From Thermoanaerobaculia bacterium (GTDB taxonomy: Bacteria > Acidobacteriota > Thermoanaerobaculia > Multivoradales > Multivoraceae), in assembly GCA_963666565.1 (NCBI GenBank), contig OY762911.1:2176001-2240000 (forward strand): a stretch of 64,000 bases of DNA. The letters are read 5' to 3'. Shown one piece after another: positions 2,480 to 12,147 of this stretch. Within the stretch, counting starts at the first letter, position 1. Each line of letters opens with the position of its first letter. The notes below the pieces were generated by a model that was not told the DNA's origin, did not search any database, and saw nothing but the letters and a program-made list of their open reading frames with translations. Made by a program: the position numbers and the translations under genes.

Positions 2480-2677
2480 GGCGCCCGGACTGTGACGCTC
2501 GTGGCGCTGGGACGCGCCACGAGGGTGCCGGCCGGCATCGGGCGATGCCGCGCCGTCGGCGGGTGGCCTCGAGGAGGTGCGGCGTAAGGCGCGCCGCCAA
2601 CCGTCCTCAGCCGCTCCGCGAAGGCCTTGGTTCTACCTGACGAGCGCTCCGCTCCGGTGCTGACGTAGGATCGCGTC

Positions 2678-3187
2678 GTGAGCCGTCCCGAGATCCAGTT
2701 CCCTCGGTCCCGTTGCCCTGTCGACCCCGTTGGCGACTCAGGGCATTCCCGCGACCCTGGAGCGCCGAGCGCCGCACCGCACCGATCCCCGGTCAAGCCC
2801 CTGCGCGTCTTCCTCAGCTACGCCAGCGCGCACAAGCCCCTCGTCGACCGCTTCCGCGAAGAGGCGGCGGCCAGCCCTTCCTACCCTTGGTTTCGCGGCA
2901 GCTCTCTCGACGAGCCCATAGTCGACTGGCAGCGGCACGCAGAGCGCCTCATCCGTCGTTCGGCAGCCACCATTTGCCTGGTCGGCGACACCACTTGGCG
3001 CAGCGAACCGGTCAATTGGGAGATCCGCCGCGCCGCGAGTTTCGGGAAGCCGATCCTGGCGATCTCCCTGTACTCCAGTGGGGTCCGTCTGCCCGCCGCG
3101 CTGCTGGATCTCGGCATTCACTCCGTCGCCTTCAATCCGAACTCCTTCTTGCGGAACCTGAGTCATGACAGTTATCGATCCACTTGA
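2678..3187 (+). CDS. TIR domain protein (ThsB/MTH538-like)
   Basis: 'RVFLSYA', 'ICLVGDTTWRSEPVNWEIRRA', 'GKPILAI'. The catalytic Glu is present. Start codon uncertain. Confidence 0.8.
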   Translation: MSRPEIQFPRSRCPVDPVGDSGHSRDPGAPSAAPHRSPVKPLRVFLSYASAHKPLVDRFREEAAASPSYPWFRGSSLDEPIVDWQRHAERLIRRSAATICLVGDTTWRSEPVNWEIRRAASFGKPILAISLYSSGVRLPAALLDLGIHSVAFNPNSFLRNLSHDSYRST

Positions 3188-3686
3188 CGAGGACCTCTTC
3201 GCGGGGCGCGAGCCTGAGGAGGGGCAGGCGCAAGCGCTCCTGGAACAGTACAAGCTGTTCGTCAACACGTCCGAGGCCCTCGTGCAGCGGCGGCAGGGCG
3301 TGAACACCTTCTTCCTTTCCGTAAACTCCCTGCTCCTTGCCGCGGCCGGGCTGATCGTGCGCGACGGTTCGTTGGGCGGCGTGGAGTCCCTGATCCTGAT
3401 CTCACTGAGCGTCAGCGGTGGCGTCCTGTGTCTGGTCTGGCGTAGCTTGATCTCGTCGTTCAGGCAGTTGAGCGCGGGCAAGTTCAGGATCATCCATGCT
3501 CTCGAACAGCGACTTCCCGCCCGGATTTTCAGTGCCGAATGGGTCGCGCTCGGAAAAGGGAAGGACCCGAAGATCTACAAGCCCTTCACGGGCACGGAGT
3601 CGACGACTCCTATCGCCTTCTTGGTGCTTCACTTGGCTCTGCTGGTGGCCGGTGCGTCGAGGGCGCTCACCCCTCTGGCCTCCTGA
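3165..3686 (+). CDS. Small ~3-TM membrane protein, candidate pore-forming defence effector
   Basis: N-terminal 'LLEQYKLFV..RRQGVNTFF', three hydrophobic stretches and 'KFRIIHALE..LP'. Overlaps the upstream TIR gene. Confidence 0.7.
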   Translation: MTVIDPLDEDLFAGREPEEGQAQALLEQYKLFVNTSEALVQRRQGVNTFFLSVNSLLLAAAGLIVRDGSLGGVESLILISLSVSGGVLCLVWRSLISSFRQLSAGKFRIIHALEQRLPARIFSAEWVALGKGKDPKIYKPFTGTESTTPIAFLVLHLALLVAGASRALTPLAS

Positions 3687-3704
3687 GGAGGTTCGACCAA
3701 GGTC

Positions 3705-4145
3705 ATGAGCACGCGACGGATCCACCTCTTCATCAGCCACTCGTGGGCGTACTCGGGGCACTACGACACGCTCTGTTCGTGGGTTTTCGAGAGGAGTTGG
3801 TCGGTAGGGCAAGCGTCGCTCGAGTTCTTCGACTTCTCCGTGCCCAAGTACGATCCGATCCACGACGCGGGATCCGACCGGGCGCTCCAGGCAGCGATTC
3901 TCAGGAAGATCGATCGGAGTCACGTCGTTGTCTGCCCGACGGGCATGTATGCGAACCACAGCAAGTGGATCCGGAAGGAGCTGGCGGGAGCGAGGGCGAA
4001 GAGCAAACCGGTCCTGGGTGTCGATCCTTGGGGCCAGCAACGGCGTTCGTCGGTCGTAGGCGGTGCCGCGCGAGAGACGGTCGGCTGGAACGGAAAAAGC
4101 GTTGTGCAGGGCATCTGGAGGTGTTACCTGGACAGAGGCTACTGA
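3705..4145 (+). CDS. TIR domain protein (ThsB/MTH538/DUF1863-like)
   Basis: 'HLFISHSWAY', 'DFSVP', 'GMYANHSKWIRKEL', 'KPVLGV', 'VGWN'. RBS GAGGAGG. Confidence 0.85.
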   Translation: MSTRRIHLFISHSWAYSGHYDTLCSWVFERSWSVGQASLEFFDFSVPKYDPIHDAGSDRALQAAILRKIDRSHVVVCPTGMYANHSKWIRKELAGARAKSKPVLGVDPWGQQRRSSVVGGAARETVGWNGKSVVQGIWRCYLDRGY

Positions 4146-4317
4146 CGTCGATCAGTACAACCCGCCAACTCTCCCGTTCCCGTGGTCTCGCCAACTACAG
4201 CTGCCCCGGCGGCCCGATTCAGAGAGCGATGTCGGCCACGTTGGCCACGCCGTCAACGGACGCACGTGCGACTCGGTACTGAGGCCGACTTGCCTGCGAC
4301 TCGATCTTCCCCGGGAC

Positions 4318-4359
4318 CTGCGACCTCATGTCCTTGCCGTCGATGACCTTCTCGACGAC
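4318..4359 (-). pseudogene. Fragment of a type III res gene 3' end (divergent allele)
   Basis: 39/42 identical to 6373-6414. Encodes VVEKVIDGKDMRSQ versus VVQKVMDGNDMRSQ. Confidence 0.75.
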
Positions 4360-4784
4360 TGCTCGGGCGTTTCTGACGGCTCCGCCGCGGCGGCCATCTA
4401 CCGCACCGAGGACGCCCACAAGTACAACGACGACCCGATCTTCATCAAGGCGCTGTCGTTCGTAGCGGGTCCCTCCGAGGGCCCCAAGCGTCAGGACGGC
4501 CGCTTCGACCTCGACGGCGACCAGCCGGTCGACCCGGACGGCGAGCTGAAGAGCTTCGGCCATCCGATTGGAACCTCCGGCCTGCGGATGATGTACGAGA
4601 TGTGGCTCCAGCTCCGCGGCGAGGCCGGCGAGCGCCAGATCGCCGATCCCAAGCTCGGCCTGACCGACAATCTCGGCGGCGCCCCGGGCCGCTGCGTCAG
4701 CTTCGTCTCGGTCGTCGGCCTGTAGGCCCTGACTGAAGCGCTAGTGCACTGCGACCCCGCTGGCTTCCCGGCGGCGTGGTTTCG
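4357..4784 (+). pseudogene. Duplicated 3' part of the thiolase gene plus a degenerate terminator, with an internal 189-bp deletion
   Basis: Matches 1818-2435 with scattered substitutions. The segment between GGAC at 1955 and GGAC at 2144 is missing. Confidence 0.9.
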
Positions 4785-5030
4785 CTTCCAATGTCGGTGC
4801 GCCGGCCTTCTGGCCGGTACCGGGCGGTGTTGCGCCGGTGTACTTGTAGCCTCAGCGGCGAGAGTGGCTGCGGTCCAGCCCATAAGTCGAACGACGATTC
4901 GACTGGCGCGGGGCGTGTCCCCGCCATCGGGGAAGCTACAGTGAACCAGATCGTCGCCTCGCGCCTGCCGGACGGGGCGAACGAGCCGCGTAGGGTCCAG
5001 CGACGGTCGAAGATCGCGAGGCCATTACCC

Positions 5031-6182
5031 ATGTCACGTCCCTACATCCTGTTCTGTCCCTATCTTCCCATCATGGAGGCGGTGACTTTCGCTGGTTGGG
5101 AACTCGCGCCGCTGGACTTCTTCCAGGACCGCTGGGCTGACCCTCGGTTCAAGGACACGGCCATCGCGTTTATGGACAGGTTCCTCGACTTGGACCACAA
5201 GCCGATCCAAAGCCCGACCCTCCTGTGCAGGGAAGGGCGGCAACTGGACGGCGAGAAGCCTCCACTGGAGGTGGTCAGGGCACTCCAGCTCGCGTTGGTC
5301 TTCGCGTTCGTCGACGGCAACCCCAGGTGCCAGCCCGGGAACAAGGACCGGGGTTCGGCCATGATGACGGCCGAGAATGCTGACTTGCACGTATGGCCTA
5401 TCAATCTGGAGAACAAGAGCGTCGTCAAGCGTACGGGCTACTTGGTCGAGACGCACACTGCCCAGTACGGTGCCGGCGGTGGCCGCCTGACCCTGAGTCC
5501 GCCGCTCGACCTCCACCTGCCCTCGATGGCGCAGGGCCCGGACCCCTTGGTCTTGGTGGGCCTCTACGAGACGATCCTGCGCTCGCTGCAGTTCCCTGGC
5601 GCGAACCGTGATGGCGAAGCGATTCGAGTCGCTGTTGATTGGTTCGCGAGAGCTTGGCAGAACACCGCCCTGGTCGGATACCCGGAGCGGCTCGTGTACC
5701 TGAAGATCGCTTTCGAGGCGCTGACCGGTACCAGCAATAGCTGGAAGAGTGGCCGCAGGCTGCGAGAGATGTTCGAAGCGGTGCCAGACACAAGGCGTGA
5801 GGATTCGGAACGCCTCGTTTGGTCTCCGGAGGAGAAGCCCGTTCACGAGCGATGCTGGAAGAACAGGCGTGGCCACGCTCGGTCCACACGCATGACGGAT
5901 CTGGAACACTGGTTCATGGAGTTCAGTGATGCGCGGAACCGTATCGTTCACGAAGGCGCGACGCCAGAGCTCACCTACACCGGTCCGAGCCCCAGCTATG
6001 CCGGTCCGTTCTTCTGGACCGCCGAGTTCCTGCTCCGCAGTGCCATCAAGGTGAAATTGTCGGAGATCGGGTATGACAACGTTTGGCGCGGCCAGCTTTG
6101 GAGGCTTATCAGGGAGATCGTGGAGGAGCCGACGGTCGAGACCGTAGAACCTCAGCCTCGATCTGAGGACGACGCGAGCTAG
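5031..6182 (+). CDS. HEPN-domain protein (ApeA/Apea-like putative RNase)
   Basis: C-terminal 'LKIAFEALTG' and 'ARNRIVHEG' (RxxxxH). Start taken at ATG 5031; the ORF track extends to 4776. Confidence 0.65.
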   Translation: MSRPYILFCPYLPIMEAVTFAGWELAPLDFFQDRWADPRFKDTAIAFMDRFLDLDHKPIQSPTLLCREGRQLDGEKPPLEVVRALQLALVFAFVDGNPRCQPGNKDRGSAMMTAENADLHVWPINLENKSVVKRTGYLVETHTAQYGAGGGRLTLSPPLDLHLPSMAQGPDPLVLVGLYETILRSLQFPGANRDGEAIRVAVDWFARAWQNTALVGYPERLVYLKIAFEALTGTSNSWKSGRRLREMFEAVPDTRREDSERLVWSPEEKPVHERCWKNRRGHARSTRMTDLEHWFMEFSDARNRIVHEGATPELTYTGPSPSYAGPFFWTAEFLLRSAIKVKLSEIGYDNVWRGQLWRLIREIVEEPTVETVEPQPRSEDDAS

Positions 6183-6348: not shown

Positions 6349-8979
6349 CTATTGCCCGATACTCTCCAGGAGCTGCGACCTCATGTCATTGCCGTCCATG
6401 ACCTTCTGGACGACGAGGAACAGACACTTTCCGGCGCTCTCCCGCTCCCACAGATCACCGATTGCGCGTTTCTCGGCCGTGTCGGCACCTTCGGCGAGGT
6501 GGGCGCCCTTGTACTCGACGACGAGCAGACGGTCGTCCTTCAACCGGGCAACGAAGTCGGGGTAGAAGCGGCCGCCTGCCGTGGGCAGCCAGAACGAGTC
6601 GGGGTGGTTCGCGACGTTGCGGACCCAGTACGTCACTGTCGGCAGACTGTCGATCGCCTGCGCGCACTGGAACTCTTCGCCGTCGGAGGAGCCGTCGAAG
6701 GCGGGTACCTGGTCGGGCCCGAGGAAGTGGCGGTTCGGCTTCCAGGGGCCGCGATAACGACGCTGCCCGTGGTACATCCCGTCCCGGAACGCGAAGGCGT
6801 CGTCGAAGGAAACGCCAACTTTGGCCGTGGGCGCGAACAGGAACTGCTGGTAGGCGGACTCCCTCTCCCTTCGGCGAATGGCCGCGATCTTTCCGCGCAC
6901 CTTGCGCGTCAGGATGAACTTGCACCGCATCAGCGCCGCGATGTGAAGCCCGCGGGCGACGAGCAGGTGGTTGACCAGCTCGCTCAGCCAGCGCAGGAGC
7001 TCTCCCTGTCCGATGTCGGGCTGACGGACCTGCCGGTCGAGCCAGCGCACTAGCGCCTGCGGCGTCCAGCCTTCGACGTCGACGTCGAGGGTCAGTTGCT
7101 CCTCTTCGGAGGCGAAGCGGTAGGTCACGCGCTGGCCGTCCAGGTCGATCTCGAAGCCGCGCGCGGTCTCGCGGACGGTGAACTCCTCCTTCGCGAGCTT
7201 TGGCGAATGATCCAGTAGGGACCAGTCGCGGCACTCCATGAACAGCTCCGTGTCGGCGAAGACGATCTCGCCCTGCACGGCCGCGGTGAGGCGCGGCGCG
7301 GAGAGTCGTCGTCCGCGTTGCGCCGGCGAGAGCCGGCGGTATCGTTCCGCCCTGTACTCGTCGACAGAACGGACAAACTCGGCTCGTTCGTCTTCGGGCA
7401 GAGCGTCGCGGACGGCGTCCACCACATCCGGGTCGAGTTCGACTTCGGAGGCGATCTCGATCTTCCCGGTCTCCGACGTCCTCAGCGTGAACCCTCTGGC
7501 GCCCTTGAGAACCGCCAGAAGGTCGTCGGAGACGGTCGCGATGTGACTGAGCGTCGGGGGCGTCTGGTCGTGAGGCGCGGAGAGCGTCTCGTTGGGAAGC
7601 AGGTCCCGCTGAGCGGCCTCGACGTGTTCTTCAGCCTCCTCCTCCTCGAAGCCCATCGAGACCAGCTTGTCGACCAGCGCCCGCGCGGCGTGGCCGAAAG
7701 ACGGCTCGGAAAGGAAAGCGTAGGCGCGGTTCAGAGCGTCGTCTTTGCGGCGCTCCGCGAAGGGCATTCGCAGGACGCGACCGAGGAGCTGCTCGACGTC
7801 CCGGCCGTCCTGGATCCGGGAGACGGAACAGAAGACGTAGGCGAAGGAGCAGTCCCAGCCTTCCTTCAGCGCTTCGACGGTGATCACGTGCTCGATGGGG
7901 CACTCCGGGTCGAACAGGTCGAGCCCGTCGAGTTCCCTCTGTTTGCCGGTGGCTACGGCGATCTTCTCCTCCGCGATCTGCTCGACCTCGACGAGGTGCT
8001 CCTTGAGCGCTGCCGCGGTCACTTCGCGGTTCCTCGGCTGCGCCTGGAAGAGGACGATGGGCCGCATTGGCCGCGGGTCGTCGGCTGCCGTCCGGGACAG
8101 CGAGGACCGCGTCGCGACAGCGCCGTTCACCGCGTTCTGCCACGTGTCGTGCTCCGAGAGCATGACGGGCAGCTTGATCATGTCCTCGGCCTTCAGTTCG
8201 CTCGCGGTCACGCTATGCAGGATGTTCGACTTCGTTCGCGGCGTCGCCGTGAACTCGACGATGGCGCAGGGGTTCACGCGCGCCTGCATCTCCCGCGTGA
8301 GGCCAGTCACGGCATTGTGCGCTTCGTCGACGATCATCAGCGGCCGATGGAGATGGAGCAGGTTGGCGAACGAGAACTTCGGCTTCCCGTTGTCGAGCGT
8401 CTCCAGTCCCTCCGGTGCGCCGACGAGGCTGCCGAAATGGGGTTCGAGGTTCTCGTTGTGCGCGTAGACCTTGCGCCCCTCGGTGTTCGTCACCCGCAGC
8501 GCCTGGATCGTGCCGACGACGATGCAGCAGTGATCGCGGAGGTTGTGGGGGCGGACGTGGGCGAAGTCCGCGATGTCGAACACGCGCACCCTGCCGTCGA
8601 ACGCTTCGTCGAGCGCCTTCCGGTAGGGATGCCGCGTGTCCTTGAGCGCCTCCGCGGTCTGTGTGCGGATCGTCTTCGTGGGAACGAGCCACAGAACGAG
8701 CGGCCAGTCCTTCTCGATCCACGCGTCGCGAGCGAGCGGGACGGCGTGAGCCGCAAGGATCGTCTTGCCGCCGCCGGTCGGCAGGCGAAGGCACACGTAG
8801 GGGACGCCGGGAAGCCCGGCCAGGGCCTTGTAGTTCTCCGCGTAGCCGCGCAGCCGGCCCGCTTGCTCCGGAGCGCCCGTGATTCTCTCGTACGCCGCCT
8901 TCGGCCCGGCGACGCGGGCTTCTTCGAGGAACGTGCGGAGAATCGCGAGCGTGTCGGCCTGATAGCGCTTCAGTTCCAC
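6349..8979 (-). CDS. res: Type III restriction enzyme Res subunit (SF2 helicase plus PD-(D/E)xK nuclease)
   Basis: 'PTGGGKT', 'DEAH', 'LKEGWD', 'QLLGRVLR', 'FYPDFV..VVEYKG'. Confidence 0.9.
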   Translation of the reverse strand: MELKRYQADTLAILRTFLEEARVAGPKAAYERITGAPEQAGRLRGYAENYKALAGLPGVPYVCLRLPTGGGKTILAAHAVPLARDAWIEKDWPLVLWLVPTKTIRTQTAEALKDTRHPYRKALDEAFDGRVRVFDIADFAHVRPHNLRDHCCIVVGTIQALRVTNTEGRKVYAHNENLEPHFGSLVGAPEGLETLDNGKPKFSFANLLHLHRPLMIVDEAHNAVTGLTREMQARVNPCAIVEFTATPRTKSNILHSVTASELKAEDMIKLPVMLSEHDTWQNAVNGAVATRSSLSRTAADDPRPMRPIVLFQAQPRNREVTAAALKEHLVEVEQIAEEKIAVATGKQRELDGLDLFDPECPIEHVITVEALKEGWDCSFAYVFCSVSRIQDGRDVEQLLGRVLRMPFAERRKDDALNRAYAFLSEPSFGHAARALVDKLVSMGFEEEEAEEHVEAAQRDLLPNETLSAPHDQTPPTLSHIATVSDDLLAVLKGARGFTLRTSETGKIEIASEVELDPDVVDAVRDALPEDERAEFVRSVDEYRAERYRRLSPAQRGRRLSAPRLTAAVQGEIVFADTELFMECRDWSLLDHSPKLAKEEFTVRETARGFEIDLDGQRVTYRFASEEEQLTLDVDVEGWTPQALVRWLDRQVRQPDIGQGELLRWLSELVNHLLVARGLHIAALMRCKFILTRKVRGKIAAIRRRERESAYQQFLFAPTAKVGVSFDDAFAFRDGMYHGQRRYRGPWKPNRHFLGPDQVPAFDGSSDGEEFQCAQAIDSLPTVTYWVRNVANHPDSFWLPTAGGRFYPDFVARLKDDRLLVVEYKGAHLAEGADTAEKRAIGDLWERESAGKCLFLVVQKVMDGNDMRSQLLESIGQ

Positions 8980-8988
8980 GCAGCGGCC

Positions 8989-10545
8989 TCAGGCCCGCGC
9001 CTTGACGTCGTACGGCGTCTGTCTGAACGCCACGCGCTCGCGCTCCAGGGTTGCCGGCATCAATCGCGAGCGCTCGCCGTAGACCGTGAGCGATCCGTCG
9101 AACCCCTGGGCCGTCTCCGCGACTCGCTCGCGGATGAGGCGGAGCGTCGCGTGCGTGAGCACGTTGCCGCCGCCGGGCCGGCGGTCGCCCAGCACGCCGT
9201 TGAAGAGCAGTGCGACGGCCTCGCCGTCGTGGACGCCGAGCAGGGGCGACGCCGCATCCCGCTTCCAGGCGATTCCGGTCTCCGAGAACCAGACGTGAGC
9301 CGCCAGCACGTCGTACCGGACGTCCGGGCGAAGGCGGCCGTCCGCGTCGAAGGCTGGCGGGCCGAGCCGATGGAAGCGGAAGCCGCCGCCGCCCCGCCAC
9401 CCCACCGATTTCGAGATTCCGCCCTGTTCGCCTTCGATGACCTTCCGGAGTCGCGGTGCGCAGTGCGTGACCGCGTGGTCCCCCATCTCAATCCCGATCC
9501 AGCGCCGGCCCATCTTGTGCGCGACCGCCGCCGTGGTTCCGGAGCCGAGGAAGGAGTCGAGGACGAGGTCGCCGGGGTTCGTGCAGGACTCGAAGATGGT
9601 GTGAACCAGGCCTTCCGGTTTCGGAAACGAGAACTTGTCGCTCAGGCCGAACAGCGCCATGCTCTCGTAGGAGCCATGCTGCGTGTAGTGGCCAGAGATG
9701 ATCGTCGTCGGCTTCCGGCCGCGTACGTTGCCCGACTCGTCCCTGAAGTACTGCTTGTACGACACCACACGCTTGCCCGATCTTCGGGCGGATACGACCA
9801 GTTCGTCATTCAGCAGGGCCTTCTTGACCCGCTCTTCTGACCACTGCCACTGCTTTTCGGGCCAGATCTCGTCGCCGTTCGGCAGGACGATCGGGAATCT
9901 GAGGTTGGGCCTCTCGTCCATGCTCGTCGTTGCCAGAGGCTGAAGCCTGTAAGGCCCTCTCGCATCGAACTTGTCGTCTTTGTACTTGTAGTACTTCTTC
10001 AAGGCCTTGGGGTCGGGCGGCAGCCAGAGTTCGGGAAGCCGGGACATGTCCGCCGCGTAGCAGAGGACGTTCTCGTGGAGGCCGAGGAACCACTTCGCCT
10101 TGGAGCCGCCTCCGTAGCTCTTCTGCCAGACGAAGTTGGTCAAGAAGTTGGAGCGTCCGAAGATCTCGTCCATCACTACCTTGAGGTAGTGCACCTCATG
10201 GTCGTCGATCGAAACCCAGATCGAGCCGTCCTCCGCGAGCAACTCCCGCAGCAGTTCCAGCCGGGGCCACATCATCGCCAGCCACTGCGAGTGCTCCAGG
10301 TTGTCGTCGTAGTGCTCGAACGCGGAGCGCGTGTTGTAGGGCGGATCGATGTAGATGCACTTGACCCGTCCAGCGTAGAACGGCAGCAGTGCCTTCAGGG
10401 CCTCGAGGTTGTCGCCCTGGATCAGCAGGTTCCCCGCTGCCGCGTCGCCGGCCGACAGGTCGGGCAGCTCTTCCAGCAGGCGGTACGGGACGCGCCGAGC
10501 GGCGCCCACGTCCTCGTTCCGGGTCAGCCAGTGGAGGGTGGGCAT
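8989..10545 (-). CDS. mod: Type III R-M Mod subunit (beta-class adenine methyltransferase)
   Basis: 'QGDNLEAL', 'IYIDPPYNT', 'VLDSFLGSGTT'. Adjacent to res. Confidence 0.9.
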   Translation of the reverse strand: MPTLHWLTRNEDVGAARRVPYRLLEELPDLSAGDAAAGNLLIQGDNLEALKALLPFYAGRVKCIYIDPPYNTRSAFEHYDDNLEHSQWLAMMWPRLELLRELLAEDGSIWVSIDDHEVHYLKVVMDEIFGRSNFLTNFVWQKSYGGGSKAKWFLGLHENVLCYAADMSRLPELWLPPDPKALKKYYKYKDDKFDARGPYRLQPLATTSMDERPNLRFPIVLPNGDEIWPEKQWQWSEERVKKALLNDELVVSARRSGKRVVSYKQYFRDESGNVRGRKPTTIISGHYTQHGSYESMALFGLSDKFSFPKPEGLVHTIFESCTNPGDLVLDSFLGSGTTAAVAHKMGRRWIGIEMGDHAVTHCAPRLRKVIEGEQGGISKSVGWRGGGGFRFHRLGPPAFDADGRLRPDVRYDVLAAHVWFSETGIAWKRDAASPLLGVHDGEAVALLFNGVLGDRRPGGGNVLTHATLRLIRERVAETAQGFDGSLTVYGERSRLMPATLERERVAFRQTPYDVKARA

Positions 10546-10591: not shown

Positions 10592-11974
10592 TCAGCTTGC
10601 CGCTCTCGTAAGCGCCTCGTCCATCGCCGCCAGCGCGAACTCGACGTCGGCCTCCGTCAGCACGAGCGGCGGCTTGACCCGCAGCACGTTGCCGTAGAGC
10701 CCGCCCTTGCCGACGATGGCGCCCAGGTCCTTCAACTCGTCGAGCACCCGGCCGGTCAGGGCGGTTCCCGGCGTCTTCGCGGCCCGGTCGGCGACCAGTT
10801 CGATGCCGATCATCAGCCCCTGGCCGCGGACGTTGCCGATGCCTTCGTGGCGTTCTGCGAGGTCGCGGAAGCCCTGCAGGAGCCGGTTGCCCTGGATCTG
10901 CGCGTTCCGCTGCAAGCCCTCCTCCTCGATCACCTCCAGCACGGCCAGGCCGGCCGCCGAAACGAGCGGATTGCCGCCGAACGTGTTGATGTGGAGTCTC
11001 TGCGCCAGCGCCGCGGCGATCTCGGAGGTGGTCGCGACGGCCGCCAGCGGCAGGCCGTTGCCGATGCCCTTGGCCATCGTGACGATCTCGGGGACGACGC
11101 CGGAGCGCTCGAAGCCCCAGAAGTTGTCGCCGGTGCGGCCGAAGCCGGTCTGGACCTCGTCGGCGATGCAGACGCCGCCGTGGGCCCGGACGATCTCGTA
11201 GACCTCGGGGAGGTAGTTGGGCGCGCCCATCGTCACGCCGCCGGCGCCCTGGATGGGCTCCGAGATGAAGGCGGCGACTTGGCCGGGCGTGGAGTACCGG
11301 ATGAGTTCGGCCACGTCCTCCGCGGAGCGGCTGGCGATCTCTTCGGGCGTTCCGGCGAACGGATTGCGGTACGGATCCGGGTTGAGCGCGTGGTGCACCG
11401 GCCCGCCGCGCTGCACGCCGGACTTCCAGGTGTGGATGCCGGTCAGCGCCCCGGTCGGCGCGCTGCCGCCGTGGTAGGCGTTGCGGATGCCGACGACGTC
11501 GGCGTTGCCCGTGTGGAGCCGGGCCATCTGGATGGCCAGGTCGTTCGCCTCGCTGCCGCTGTTCACGAAGTAGATCCGGTCGATGCTCGGCGGCAGCTTG
11601 GCCAGCAGCGCCTCGGCGAAGCGCGGCATGTTCGGGTGCAGGAAGGCGGTCGAGCCGTGGGCCAGGAGCGCCATCTGCTGCTGGACGGCGGCGACGATCT
11701 TCGGGTGGGAGTGGCCGCAGGCGACGGTGCAGATGCCGGCGAACAGATCGAGGTAGCGGCGCCCCGTCTCGTCCCAGACGTATTGCCCGCGGCCTTCGAC
11801 CAGCATCACGGGCTCGCTGTAGAGGGTGAACAGGGCCGGGTTCACGTGCTGCCGGCGCAGTTCCAGGATCTTCTCGCGGCCCGGTCCCAGGTAGGGCGCC
11901 GGCCGGTGGCTGCACGGCGGCAGCTCCAGGGCGCGGGATCGGGAAGGGGTCGCGACGTCGAGTGCCACGGTCAT
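10592..11974 (-). CDS. Class III PLP aminotransferase (AGXT2/beta-alanine aminotransferase-like)
   Basis: 'SGSEAND', 'IADEVQTGFGRTG', 'MAKGIGNG', 'TFGGNP'. RBS GAGGA before ATG 11974. Confidence 0.9.
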   Translation of the reverse strand: MTVALDVATPSRSRALELPPCSHRPAPYLGPGREKILELRRQHVNPALFTLYSEPVMLVEGRGQYVWDETGRRYLDLFAGICTVACGHSHPKIVAAVQQQMALLAHGSTAFLHPNMPRFAEALLAKLPPSIDRIYFVNSGSEANDLAIQMARLHTGNADVVGIRNAYHGGSAPTGALTGIHTWKSGVQRGGPVHHALNPDPYRNPFAGTPEEIASRSAEDVAELIRYSTPGQVAAFISEPIQGAGGVTMGAPNYLPEVYEIVRAHGGVCIADEVQTGFGRTGDNFWGFERSGVVPEIVTMAKGIGNGLPLAAVATTSEIAAALAQRLHINTFGGNPLVSAAGLAVLEVIEEEGLQRNAQIQGNRLLQGFRDLAERHEGIGNVRGQGLMIGIELVADRAAKTPGTALTGRVLDELKDLGAIVGKGGLYGNVLRVKPPLVLTEADVEFALAAMDEALTRAAS

Positions 11975-12120
11975 GTCGGTGTTCCTCGTGGCCCGCTTGC
12001 GGGGCCGTTCAGGTCGTTTCGCTGTCGGGGCCGCGTGGGGGCGCGGCGGCGTGGAAGGGAACACTAGCAGTCGGGAGAGACTCCTGGGGCACGACTCCGC
12101 TGCGCCTCGTTTCCCGAAAT

Positions 12121-12147
12121 GCGGGTCGGAAGACCCGCACACCCAGC
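12121..12147. repeat. REP-like palindrome, single copy
   Basis: Reverse-strand copy of GCTGGGTGCGCGGGTCTTCYGACCCGC. Confidence 0.75.

Follow-up and report, generated by a model that had tools for sequence, protein, structure and literature searches.

A TIR-8xMP-TIR gene cassette in a Thermoanaerobaculia bacterium as a candidate Thoeris-type module with a small membrane protein as proposed effector

Introduction

Within a stretch of 64,000 nucleotides from the genome of a Thermoanaerobaculia bacterium (GenBank assembly GCA_963666565.1, contig OY762911.1, positions 2,176,001 to 2,240,000; this whole stretch is called the window in the following), two TIR genes enclose a gene for a membrane protein of 173 amino acids, and the question arises which role such a small protein, assigned here to the family 8xMP, could play between them. 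From our point of view, it is on balance probable that TIR1, 8xMP and TIR2, as we call the three products in gene order, form a Thoeris-type abortive-infection module in which 8xMP would serve as the membrane effector. The support for this reading comes from the near-obligate linkage of 8xMP genes with TIR genes, a conserved catalytic Glu in the TIR proteins, natural TIR-8xMP fusions, the exchange of effectors among relatives of TIR2, an NB-ARC protein as partner of 8xMP in one relative, and the pattern of residue conservation within 8xMP itself.

Results

Two divergent TIR genes flank a gene of the 8xMP family

The cassette is encoded on the forward strand and consists of the following features:

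2528-2677, + strand: leader region upstream of TIR1, conserved together with the three genes in the closest relatives, with AGGA 7 nt before the GTG (blastn)
2678-3187, + strand: TIR1, a ThsB-type TIR of clade A; GTG start, 169 amino acids (Pfam, PADLOC)
3165-3686, + strand: three-transmembrane (three-TM) protein of the family 8xMP or 'RipA family octameric membrane protein', the proposed effector; ATG start, 173 amino acids (Pfam)
3705-4145, + strand: TIR2, a ThsB-type TIR of clade B; ATG start, 146 amino acids (Pfam)

The three genes are closely packed, as the TGA of TIR1 (3185-3187) lies downstream of the ATG of 8xMP (3165), which results in a 23-bp overlap, and the ATG of TIR2 follows 18 nt after the TGA of 8xMP, with a GGAGG directly 3' of that stop codon. 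The block of leader and cassette (2528-4145) is 88-89% identical to the corresponding DNA of L001 and L002 and 92% identical to that of L003 (blastn), three loci from metagenome-assembled genomes (MAGs) of Acidobacteriota ('Candidatus Multivorans'). With L001, the closest relative, as reference, dN/dS amounts to 0.35 for TIR1, 0.20 for 8xMP and 0.46 for TIR2, and judging from these ratios all three genes are under purifying selection. Around the cassette, no sigma-70-like promoter, terminator, tRNA or Rfam family was found.

Both TIR proteins match the Pfam family ThsB_TIR above its cut-off, TIR1 with an E value of 2.4e-8 and TIR2 with 6.4e-14. TIR1 further matches TIR_2 (1.5e-7) and the PADLOC model ThsB1 (7.2e-8), and aligns with the PDB entry 8fz9 'TIR' (E = 2.6e-4) including the Glu; its TIR domain covers approximately residues 42-165, and the N-terminal stretch of about 40 amino acids is common only to L001 among the 31 relatives aligned. 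TIR2 additionally matches phrog_6988 (4.9e-22), a phage family with unassigned function. The two proteins are 22% identical to each other over 72 amino acids (E = 0.009). The Glu at the catalytic position, E115 in TIR1 (VNWEI) and E92 in TIR2 (IRKEL), falls into the same alignment column, and this column holds a Glu in 77/77 TIRs of clade A and 46/47 TIRs of clade B.

These clades were obtained from a FastTree phylogeny of 124 TIR domains from 8xMP loci, which splits into two groups with a support of 97 on each side. Clade A (77 rows) contains the TIRs located directly upstream of 8xMP, TIR1 among them, and all three fused TIRs, while clade B (47 rows) contains the downstream TIRs, TIR2, and most extra TIRs including the companions of the fusion proteins. 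When 24 three-gene cassettes are compared pairwise, clade A proteins share a mean identity of 0.53, 8xMP proteins one of 0.57 and clade B proteins one of 0.64; as these pairs lack independence, the values serve for description only. A TIR2-like gene (28% identity; 1.3e-33 with the local TIR profile) was also observed in the Clostridium phage phiCDKH01 (L096, 2977-3399), where it lies in the lysogeny module of this temperate C. difficile phage and adjoins an integrase gene and a gene for a non-membrane protein of 168 amino acids.

The middle protein matches the Pfam family PF24838 '8xMP' with an E value of 1.8e-33 and 115.7 bits (cut-off 30), and the match is full-length, as residues 26-162 correspond to profile positions 1-133 of 136. 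Its hydrophobic segments (46-66, 74-96 and 149-169) are separated by a short loop (67-73) and a long, basic one (97-147; 9 K/R vs 4 D/E), from which we infer that the N-terminus and the long loop are cytoplasmic. The residues Y29, R42, R43, E114, E125 and W126 of the window protein do not vary across 59 sequences that are 29-90% identical to it, and N47, F50, L51, N54, K106 and Y138 hardly do; the conserved residues hence represent an Arg pair and aromatics on the predicted cytoplasmic side together with a polar stripe on TM1.

8xMP is a large family. With the single protein as query, 200 homologues were found, and all of the 120 that were listed carry PF24838; a profile search retrieved 3367 representative clusters (50% identity) with E<=1e-3, of which 2012 reach E<=1e-10. 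Family members bear the NCBI product name 'RipA family octameric membrane protein', in which RipA presumably refers to the envelope protein of Francisella reported to interact with LpxA, a link that exists by name only. Neither the single sequence nor the profile matched any PDB sequence, and no model of PADLOC (2023) or NCBIfam (2026) matched the window protein. When the ESM Atlas was queried with the 8xMP homologue P0105 and PF24838 entries were excluded, the best scores (0.81-0.76) stayed below the lead threshold and no close named neighbour emerged. A kinship with PycTM was considered and rejected, as it was found neither by Pfam nor among the Atlas scores. No phage with an 8xMP gene was found, the single match being one phage-plasmid record, and the literature searched contained no mention of PF24838, 8xMP or DUF7701 and no link of these families to TIRs or immunity.

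The first-pass annotation of the window, made from the DNA sequence alone, had described two mutually divergent ThsB-like TIR genes on either side of a 173-residue three-TM gene, a tight operon with a 23-bp overlap followed by a strong ribosome binding site, and a catalytic Glu retained in both TIRs, all of which is borne out by the reading frames, profile matches and alignments given above. It had also likened the middle protein to small oligomeric membrane proteins, which agrees with its placement in a family named for oligomers, and had regarded the cassette as Thoeris-like with no SIR2-SLOG, Macro or protease domain, in line with Pfam, which finds TIR and 8xMP domains only.

8xMP genes recur next to TIR genes

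The genomic surroundings of the 8xMP gene, with flanks of 6 kb each, were examined for the best 80 of 373 relatives, so that the linkage figures apply to the nearer part of the family, and TIR open reading frames (ORFs) were detected with profiles grown from TIR1 and TIR2 of the window. A ThsB-type TIR ORF was adjacent to, or fused with, the 8xMP gene in 77/80 loci, and Pfam ThsB_TIR was confirmed in 13/13 neighbours sampled. The exceptions are a decayed 8xMP copy that adjoins a HepT/MNT pair (L045), a gene located 276 nt from a contig end (L070), and a locus of a Methanotrichaceae MAG (L076, 4366-9217) with 8xMP amid two pentapeptide-repeat proteins and an ion-channel gene. Where a TIR gene precedes 8xMP on the same strand, the junction is an overlap or at most 30 nt long in 63/74 loci. 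The search for recurring TIR-TM(-TIR) operons that the first-pass annotation had proposed thus turned out positive, and the full TIR-8xMP-TIR order is found in 25 loci by script, or in 29/80 after four over-extended ORFs had been corrected by eye, which span Acidobacteriota, Gammaproteobacteria, Rhodothermales, Binatia and others.

Three architectures can be distinguished, namely (i) a short 8xMP protein with a TIR upstream and often another one downstream, as in the window; (ii) an 8xMP protein of about 272 amino acids in which DUF7701 forms the N-terminal domain and which is preceded by a single TIR; and (iii) one polypeptide that joins a TIR, as N-terminal part, to 8xMP, as in Clostridium tagluense, Dendrosporobacter and Sporomusa. 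The N-terminal fusions occur in the loci L060, L069 and L079, and a clade-B TIR is present there too. Among 56 long representatives (at least 205 amino acids, from the best 149), there are 17 TIR-8xMP fusions, 10 DUF7701-8xMP proteins and 29 with 8xMP only.

Two further arrangements were observed. In L002 (5866-6978), 8xMP and the downstream TIR form one ORF of 370 amino acids, which could be a C-terminal fusion or else result from an indel in the assembly, and the protein P0005 (236 amino acids) also has both Pfam domains. In the Gammaproteobacteria MAG loci L008, L013 and L014, a second, divergent 8xMP paralogue (5037-5555; Pfam 7e-15) lies just upstream of the cassette, and mixed rings are possible with this 8xMP'-TIR-8xMP(-TIR) order.

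The linkage extends to distant relatives on plasmids of bacteria and haloarchaea (24-40% identity), for which a TIR gene lies directly upstream of 8xMP in 8/14 contexts, including three haloarchaeal plasmids and a Halorubrum one. Among the other six contexts, one has an NB-ARC gene upstream, one a gene whose large product matches TIR_2 below threshold, and neither kind is present in the remaining four. Neighbours of the plasmid copies include restriction-modification (R-M), PIN, HEPN, NucS and HNH genes, and the overall distribution of 8xMP is patchy across many phyla and archaea. The NB-ARC case was observed on the Rhizobium leguminosarum plasmid pRL22b6 (L089, 1-2956), where a large NB-ARC (STAND) protein gene ends 2 nt before 8xMP. 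An 8xMP gene that follows a non-TIR sensor fits a role of 8xMP as effector.

Relatives of TIR2 occur with different effectors

With the TIR1 domain, tblastn found no plasmid relative, and with TIR2 it found 105 matching plasmid records, of which five were viewed together with one Salmonella record from the phage collection. In Arsenophonus paPb3 (56% identity to TIR2), the TIR gene is followed by a gene for a caspase-family protein; in Rhizobium rhizogenes (53%), two TIR genes have a caspase-family gene close by; in B. cereus AH187 (37.5%), a peptidase C14 gene follows, and in Salmonella houtenae (39.7%) one for an ICE-like protease p20. On a small E. coli plasmid (33.8%), the TIR gene adjoins that of a DUF4231 protein, a family which we take to be related to SLATT. 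The closest plasmid relatives of TIR2 hence adjoin caspase-like proteases, as in the layout of type IV Thoeris, so that the clade of TIR2 apparently swaps effectors. The same logic has been applied to call new Thoeris effectors (Yirmiya et al., bioRxiv 10.64898/2025.12.03.692087, December 2025; text of the preprint).

Two loci in which these partners meet 8xMP stand beside this. On the Paracoccus pantotrophus plasmid pPAN3 (L099, 2947-5281), a TIR2-like gene precedes an 8xMP gene that is split, with a distance of about 1.3 kb between the two pieces. The other case is L044 (6851-9184), where three clade-B-like TIR genes flank a caspase-like gene (PADLOC 1.3e-19) and this group directly adjoins a TIR-DUF7701-8xMP pair, such that one island holds two TIR systems with different effectors.

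Comparison with known Thoeris systems

Thoeris types V-XI have been validated and 29 effector types predicted (Yirmiya et al., 2025), and the text of that preprint names DUF2270, DUF6650, SLATT, CMP hydrolase, ion channel, hydrolase and DUF2188 effectors. The terms '8xMP', 'PF24838' and 'RipA' are absent from this text, a statement that covers neither its figures nor its supplementary tables. As to the effectors of types I, II and IV, Pfam detected only ThsB_TIR, TIR_2 and 8xMP in the cassette and PADLOC no effector model, its weak ThsB and PDC-M50B matches concerning the TIRs only; the candidate Rst_2TM_1TM_TIR was not among the PADLOC models that matched. What the cassette does have in common with Thoeris systems is a ThsB-type TIR with a catalytic Glu and a non-TIR gene, 8xMP, that recurs in TIR operons both in the nearer loci and in distant plasmid contexts.

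The closest parallel is type V, in which ThsF (DUF2270, PF10028), a three-TM protein, was modelled as a heptameric ring with basic inter-protomer cytoplasmic pockets and is activated by 3' cyclic ADP-ribose (3'cADPR), the TIR-made cADPR isomer that sets off its toxicity (Yirmiya et al., 2025, preprint text). Like ThsB and ThsF, the window cassette combines a ThsB-type TIR with an adjoining small three-TM protein that has a basic cytoplasmic region. However, none of 23 8xMP family members checked with Pfam profiles matches DUF2270 (0/23 at E<=10), and the Atlas neighbours do not include this family. The nominal stoichiometry of eight, which derives from the family name, also differs from the heptamer model of ThsF, and type V has no counterpart to the two TIRs of different clades in the window or to the TIR fusions and the DUF7701 domain among 8xMP relatives. 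Type VII Thoeris and CBASS (cyclic oligonucleotide-based antiphage signalling systems) employ SLATT proteins, small multi-TM effectors that are thought to oligomerise on nucleotide binding (Yirmiya et al., 2025, preprint text). The effector candidate of the window is likewise a small multi-TM protein and the TIR2 relative of E. coli adjoins a DUF4231 protein, whereas a single one of the same 23 8xMP members matches SLATT_6, with a non-significant E value of 0.4.

Type IV, as summarised in the same preprint, pairs a TIR with a caspase-like protease and uses N7-cADPR as signal. Similarities to this type are found in the identity of TIR2 to TIRs that adjoin caspase-family genes (56%, 53%, 40% and 37.5%) and in L044, where a caspase-like gene and clade-B-like TIRs adjoin a TIR-8xMP pair. 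Unlike type IV, the window cassette has no protease but a membrane protein in the effector slot, and TIR1 is without a counterpart there. Since the nearest relatives of TIR2 serve caspase effectors, an N7-cADPR-like product would be a reasonable first guess for TIR2. In type II, ThsB1 and ThsB2 differ in activity and ThsA is a TM-Macro protein (Sci Adv 2024, PMC11204291). Type II and the window both combine, within one operon, two divergent TIRs and an effector aimed at the membrane, a proposed one in the window, but the 8xMP protein with its 173 amino acids has no Macro domain, nor room for one.

The first-pass annotation had suggested a possibly undescribed system, of which one part stands, in that no PADLOC 2023 or NCBIfam 2026 model covers it, and another does not, as the text of the preprint already describes this kind of system, a TIR with a small ring-forming membrane effector (DUF2270, SLATT). 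By analogy, TIR-8xMP would work like type V or VII Thoeris while being a member of neither, from which Pfam matching sets it apart. It may already sit among the 29 predicted effector types or be ThsJ (type IX, Bacillus), for which the text of the preprint names no domain; a query with a Firmicute 8xMP protein returned Clostridium members and none from Bacillus.

The cassette occupies a scarred insertion site next to a type III restriction-modification system

On one side of the chromosomal insertion site lies a thiolase gene (1200-2375), on the other a gene for a class-III aminotransferase (10592-12142, - strand). At a distance of 2.2 kb from the cassette lies a type III R-M system with res (6349-8979, - strand; PADLOC REase_III, 1.8e-176) and mod (8989-10545, - strand; MTase_III, 6e-161), and the R-M neighbour named by the first-pass annotation is hence real. 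Its HEPN neighbour found no such backing. The ORF in question (4776-6182, + strand; 468 amino acids), located between the cassette and the R-M genes, has an RNRIVH (Rx4H) motif near its C-terminus and matched nothing in Pfam, PADLOC, NCBIfam, PHROGs or PDB sequences, and the stretch is absent from L001 and L002, which have other DNA at this position. The remainder of the window is housekeeping, with PADLOC matches in 0/25 ORFs.

One further feature adjoins the cassette:

4300-4763, no strand: right-hand insertion scar with non-functional remnants (direct repeats)

Direct repeats connect 2144-2413 with 4494-4763 (95%), 1818-1967 with 4357-4506 (89%) and 4302-4359 with 6357-6414 (86%). Accordingly, 4357-4763 duplicates part of the 3' end of the thiolase gene and of the spacer that follows it, 4300-4359 is a fragment similar to the res 3' end, and 2436-2479 a fragment of the aminotransferase 3' end (matching 10592-10635). 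The order of thiolase, cassette and thiolase duplicate is common to L001-L003 at about 90% DNA identity to the window. The partial duplicates around the island look like the traces of a recombination hotspot at which defence modules are exchanged; no integrase or tRNA was found near the site. In two other Thermoanaerobaculia loci (L004 and L005), one of which has a DrmMI/type IIG gene next to the cassette, only the three-gene block is in common with the window (2804-4131, 68% nucleotide identity) and the surroundings differ, so that the three genes travel as one block.

A ryanodine receptor-like domain in sister systems

Long TIR-associated relatives of 8xMP carry an N-terminal domain, DUF7701 (PF24792), at the following position:

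L037, 5674-6003: DUF7701; same region in L038, L039, L041, L046, L058, L062, L064, L067, L075, L078 and L080

The DUF7701 profile matches the RyR1-repeat chimera 6uhi (RyR, ryanodine receptor) with E values of 1.7e-6 to 3.3e-6. A single bacterial 'putative ryanodine receptor' is matched in four variants (0.02-0.06) over the motif H..W..W...H..LVPY..L, and Pfam RyR is weakly matched by 5/12 DUF7701 members (best 0.015). On these profile matches DUF7701 looks like a divergent RyR repeat, and it may be the signal receptor of the DUF7701-8xMP systems. That it might be a degenerate TIR was considered and dropped (hhalign probability 0.4).

Discussion

How could the products of the cassette act together? 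In the mechanism that we favour, the TIR proteins would be NAD+-consuming enzymes, with NADase or cyclase activity, whose activation by phage infection yields an ADP-ribose-derived signal, and 8xMP would form a homo-oligomeric ring in the inner membrane. The signal would bind to the conserved basic cytoplasmic parts of 8xMP, that is, the N-terminal helix ending with R42-R43 and, as the second part of the putative signal-binding region, the TM2-TM3 loop with K106, E114, E125 and W126. Upon binding, the polar face of TM1 (N47, F50, L51 and N54) would open and the membrane would be permeabilised or depolarised, such that the infected cell stops supporting phage growth. TIR1 would be the constant, translationally coupled partner of 8xMP, and TIR2 an accessory second signal producer or sensor from a clade that appears to drive caspase-like effectors elsewhere.

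Several points weigh against this mechanism. Its support is comparative throughout. As no clade A TIR with another effector was found, the TIR1 domain having no plasmid match, the exchange of effectors holds for TIR2 only, and 8xMP bears no sequence relation to the known Thoeris membrane effectors DUF2270 and SLATT in the 23 members checked. No clade-B TIR was found by script in 42/80 loci, so that TIR2 seems dispensable for the core. The enrichment of defence genes is weak, with PADLOC matches (1e-10) in 14/127 of the nearest large neighbour ORFs of related loci vs 0/25 window control ORFs (Fisher p = 0.13). A permanent complex of TIR and ring would explain the TIR-8xMP fusions and the close coupling at least equally well, and if the membership of RipA is real, at least one 8xMP protein would have a role outside defence.

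Such a permanent complex, in which TIR1 would be docked on the cytoplasmic face of the 8xMP ring, or fused to it in some lineages, and would act without a diffusible messenger, is in our view an unlikely alternative, albeit a serious one. The ring could then be a sensor or scaffold that triggers NAD+-depleting TIRs, or a conformational change of the TIR could gate the pore. Such an arrangement would account for the N-terminal fusions (three loci, 17/56 long representatives), whose TIRs belong to clade A as TIR1 does, for the short or overlapping junctions, which suggest co-translation and stoichiometric assembly, and for the absence of clade A TIRs with other effectors from the plasmid search with the TIR1 domain. 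By contrast, the occurrence of TIR2-type TIRs with caspase, DUF4231 and 8xMP partners argues for a transferable signal, TIRs of the ThsB_TIR family are the signal-producing class in characterised Thoeris according to the text of the preprint (Yirmiya et al., 2025), and the invariant Arg, Trp and Tyr residues in the cytoplasmic parts of 8xMP are what one would expect of a small-ligand pocket.

It is also conceivable that two unrelated units lie side by side, such that TIR1 and 8xMP make up the system and TIR2 is a stray remnant of a type IV (caspase) Thoeris system after loss of the protease, which would explain why the closest relatives of TIR2 are found in TIR-caspase operons and why about half of the related loci (42/80) have no clade-B TIR. 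We regard this as improbable, since a clade-B TIR occupies the same downstream position in 29/80 loci across several lineages, is carried along where the cassette appears in other surroundings (L004, L005) and is present again in the fusion loci L060, L069 and L079, and since TIR2 is the most conserved of the three genes (0.64 vs 0.57 and 0.53), keeps its Glu in 46/47 cases and is under purifying selection. Even further from likely, to the point of being very improbable, is a non-immune function, in which 8xMP would be a RipA-like protein of envelope homeostasis regulated by TIR-like nucleotide-processing enzymes. Its attraction lies in the NCBI family name, in the reported interaction of Francisella RipA with LpxA (PMC12444477), which is tied to PF24838 by name only, and in the non-significant enrichment of defence neighbours. 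Such a function sits poorly, however, with a variable insertion site that adjoins an R-M system, with plasmid copies next to R-M, PIN, HEPN, NucS and HNH genes, with the patchy distribution over many phyla and archaea, and with the pairing of TIR2 relatives with caspase-like effectors of a validated defence type.

Returning to the Thoeris-type module with 8xMP as membrane effector, a more far-reaching version can be imagined, which we consider distinctly doubtful. The cassette would then represent an undescribed Thoeris type in which a pre-assembled eight-fold ring of three-TM proteins is a pore gated by a TIR-made signal of the cyclic ADP-ribose type, with the RyR-like DUF7701 as receptor in a sister lineage and a possible root of the cADPR-RyR signalling of animals.

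If 8xMP is indeed a TIR-controlled pore, a large and widespread effector family would be added to TIR immune signalling in bacteria and archaea, and a protein of 170 amino acids would offer a minimal model for the opening of a membrane by an ADP-ribose-derived signal. The natural fusions of TIR and effector would moreover help to separate diffusible signalling from activation by contact. The layout with two TIRs could show how one effector integrates two sensors, one from a clade private to 8xMP and the other from a clade shared with caspase systems, and the RyR-like domain of the sister systems would provide a lead on the origin of cADPR-responsive channels.

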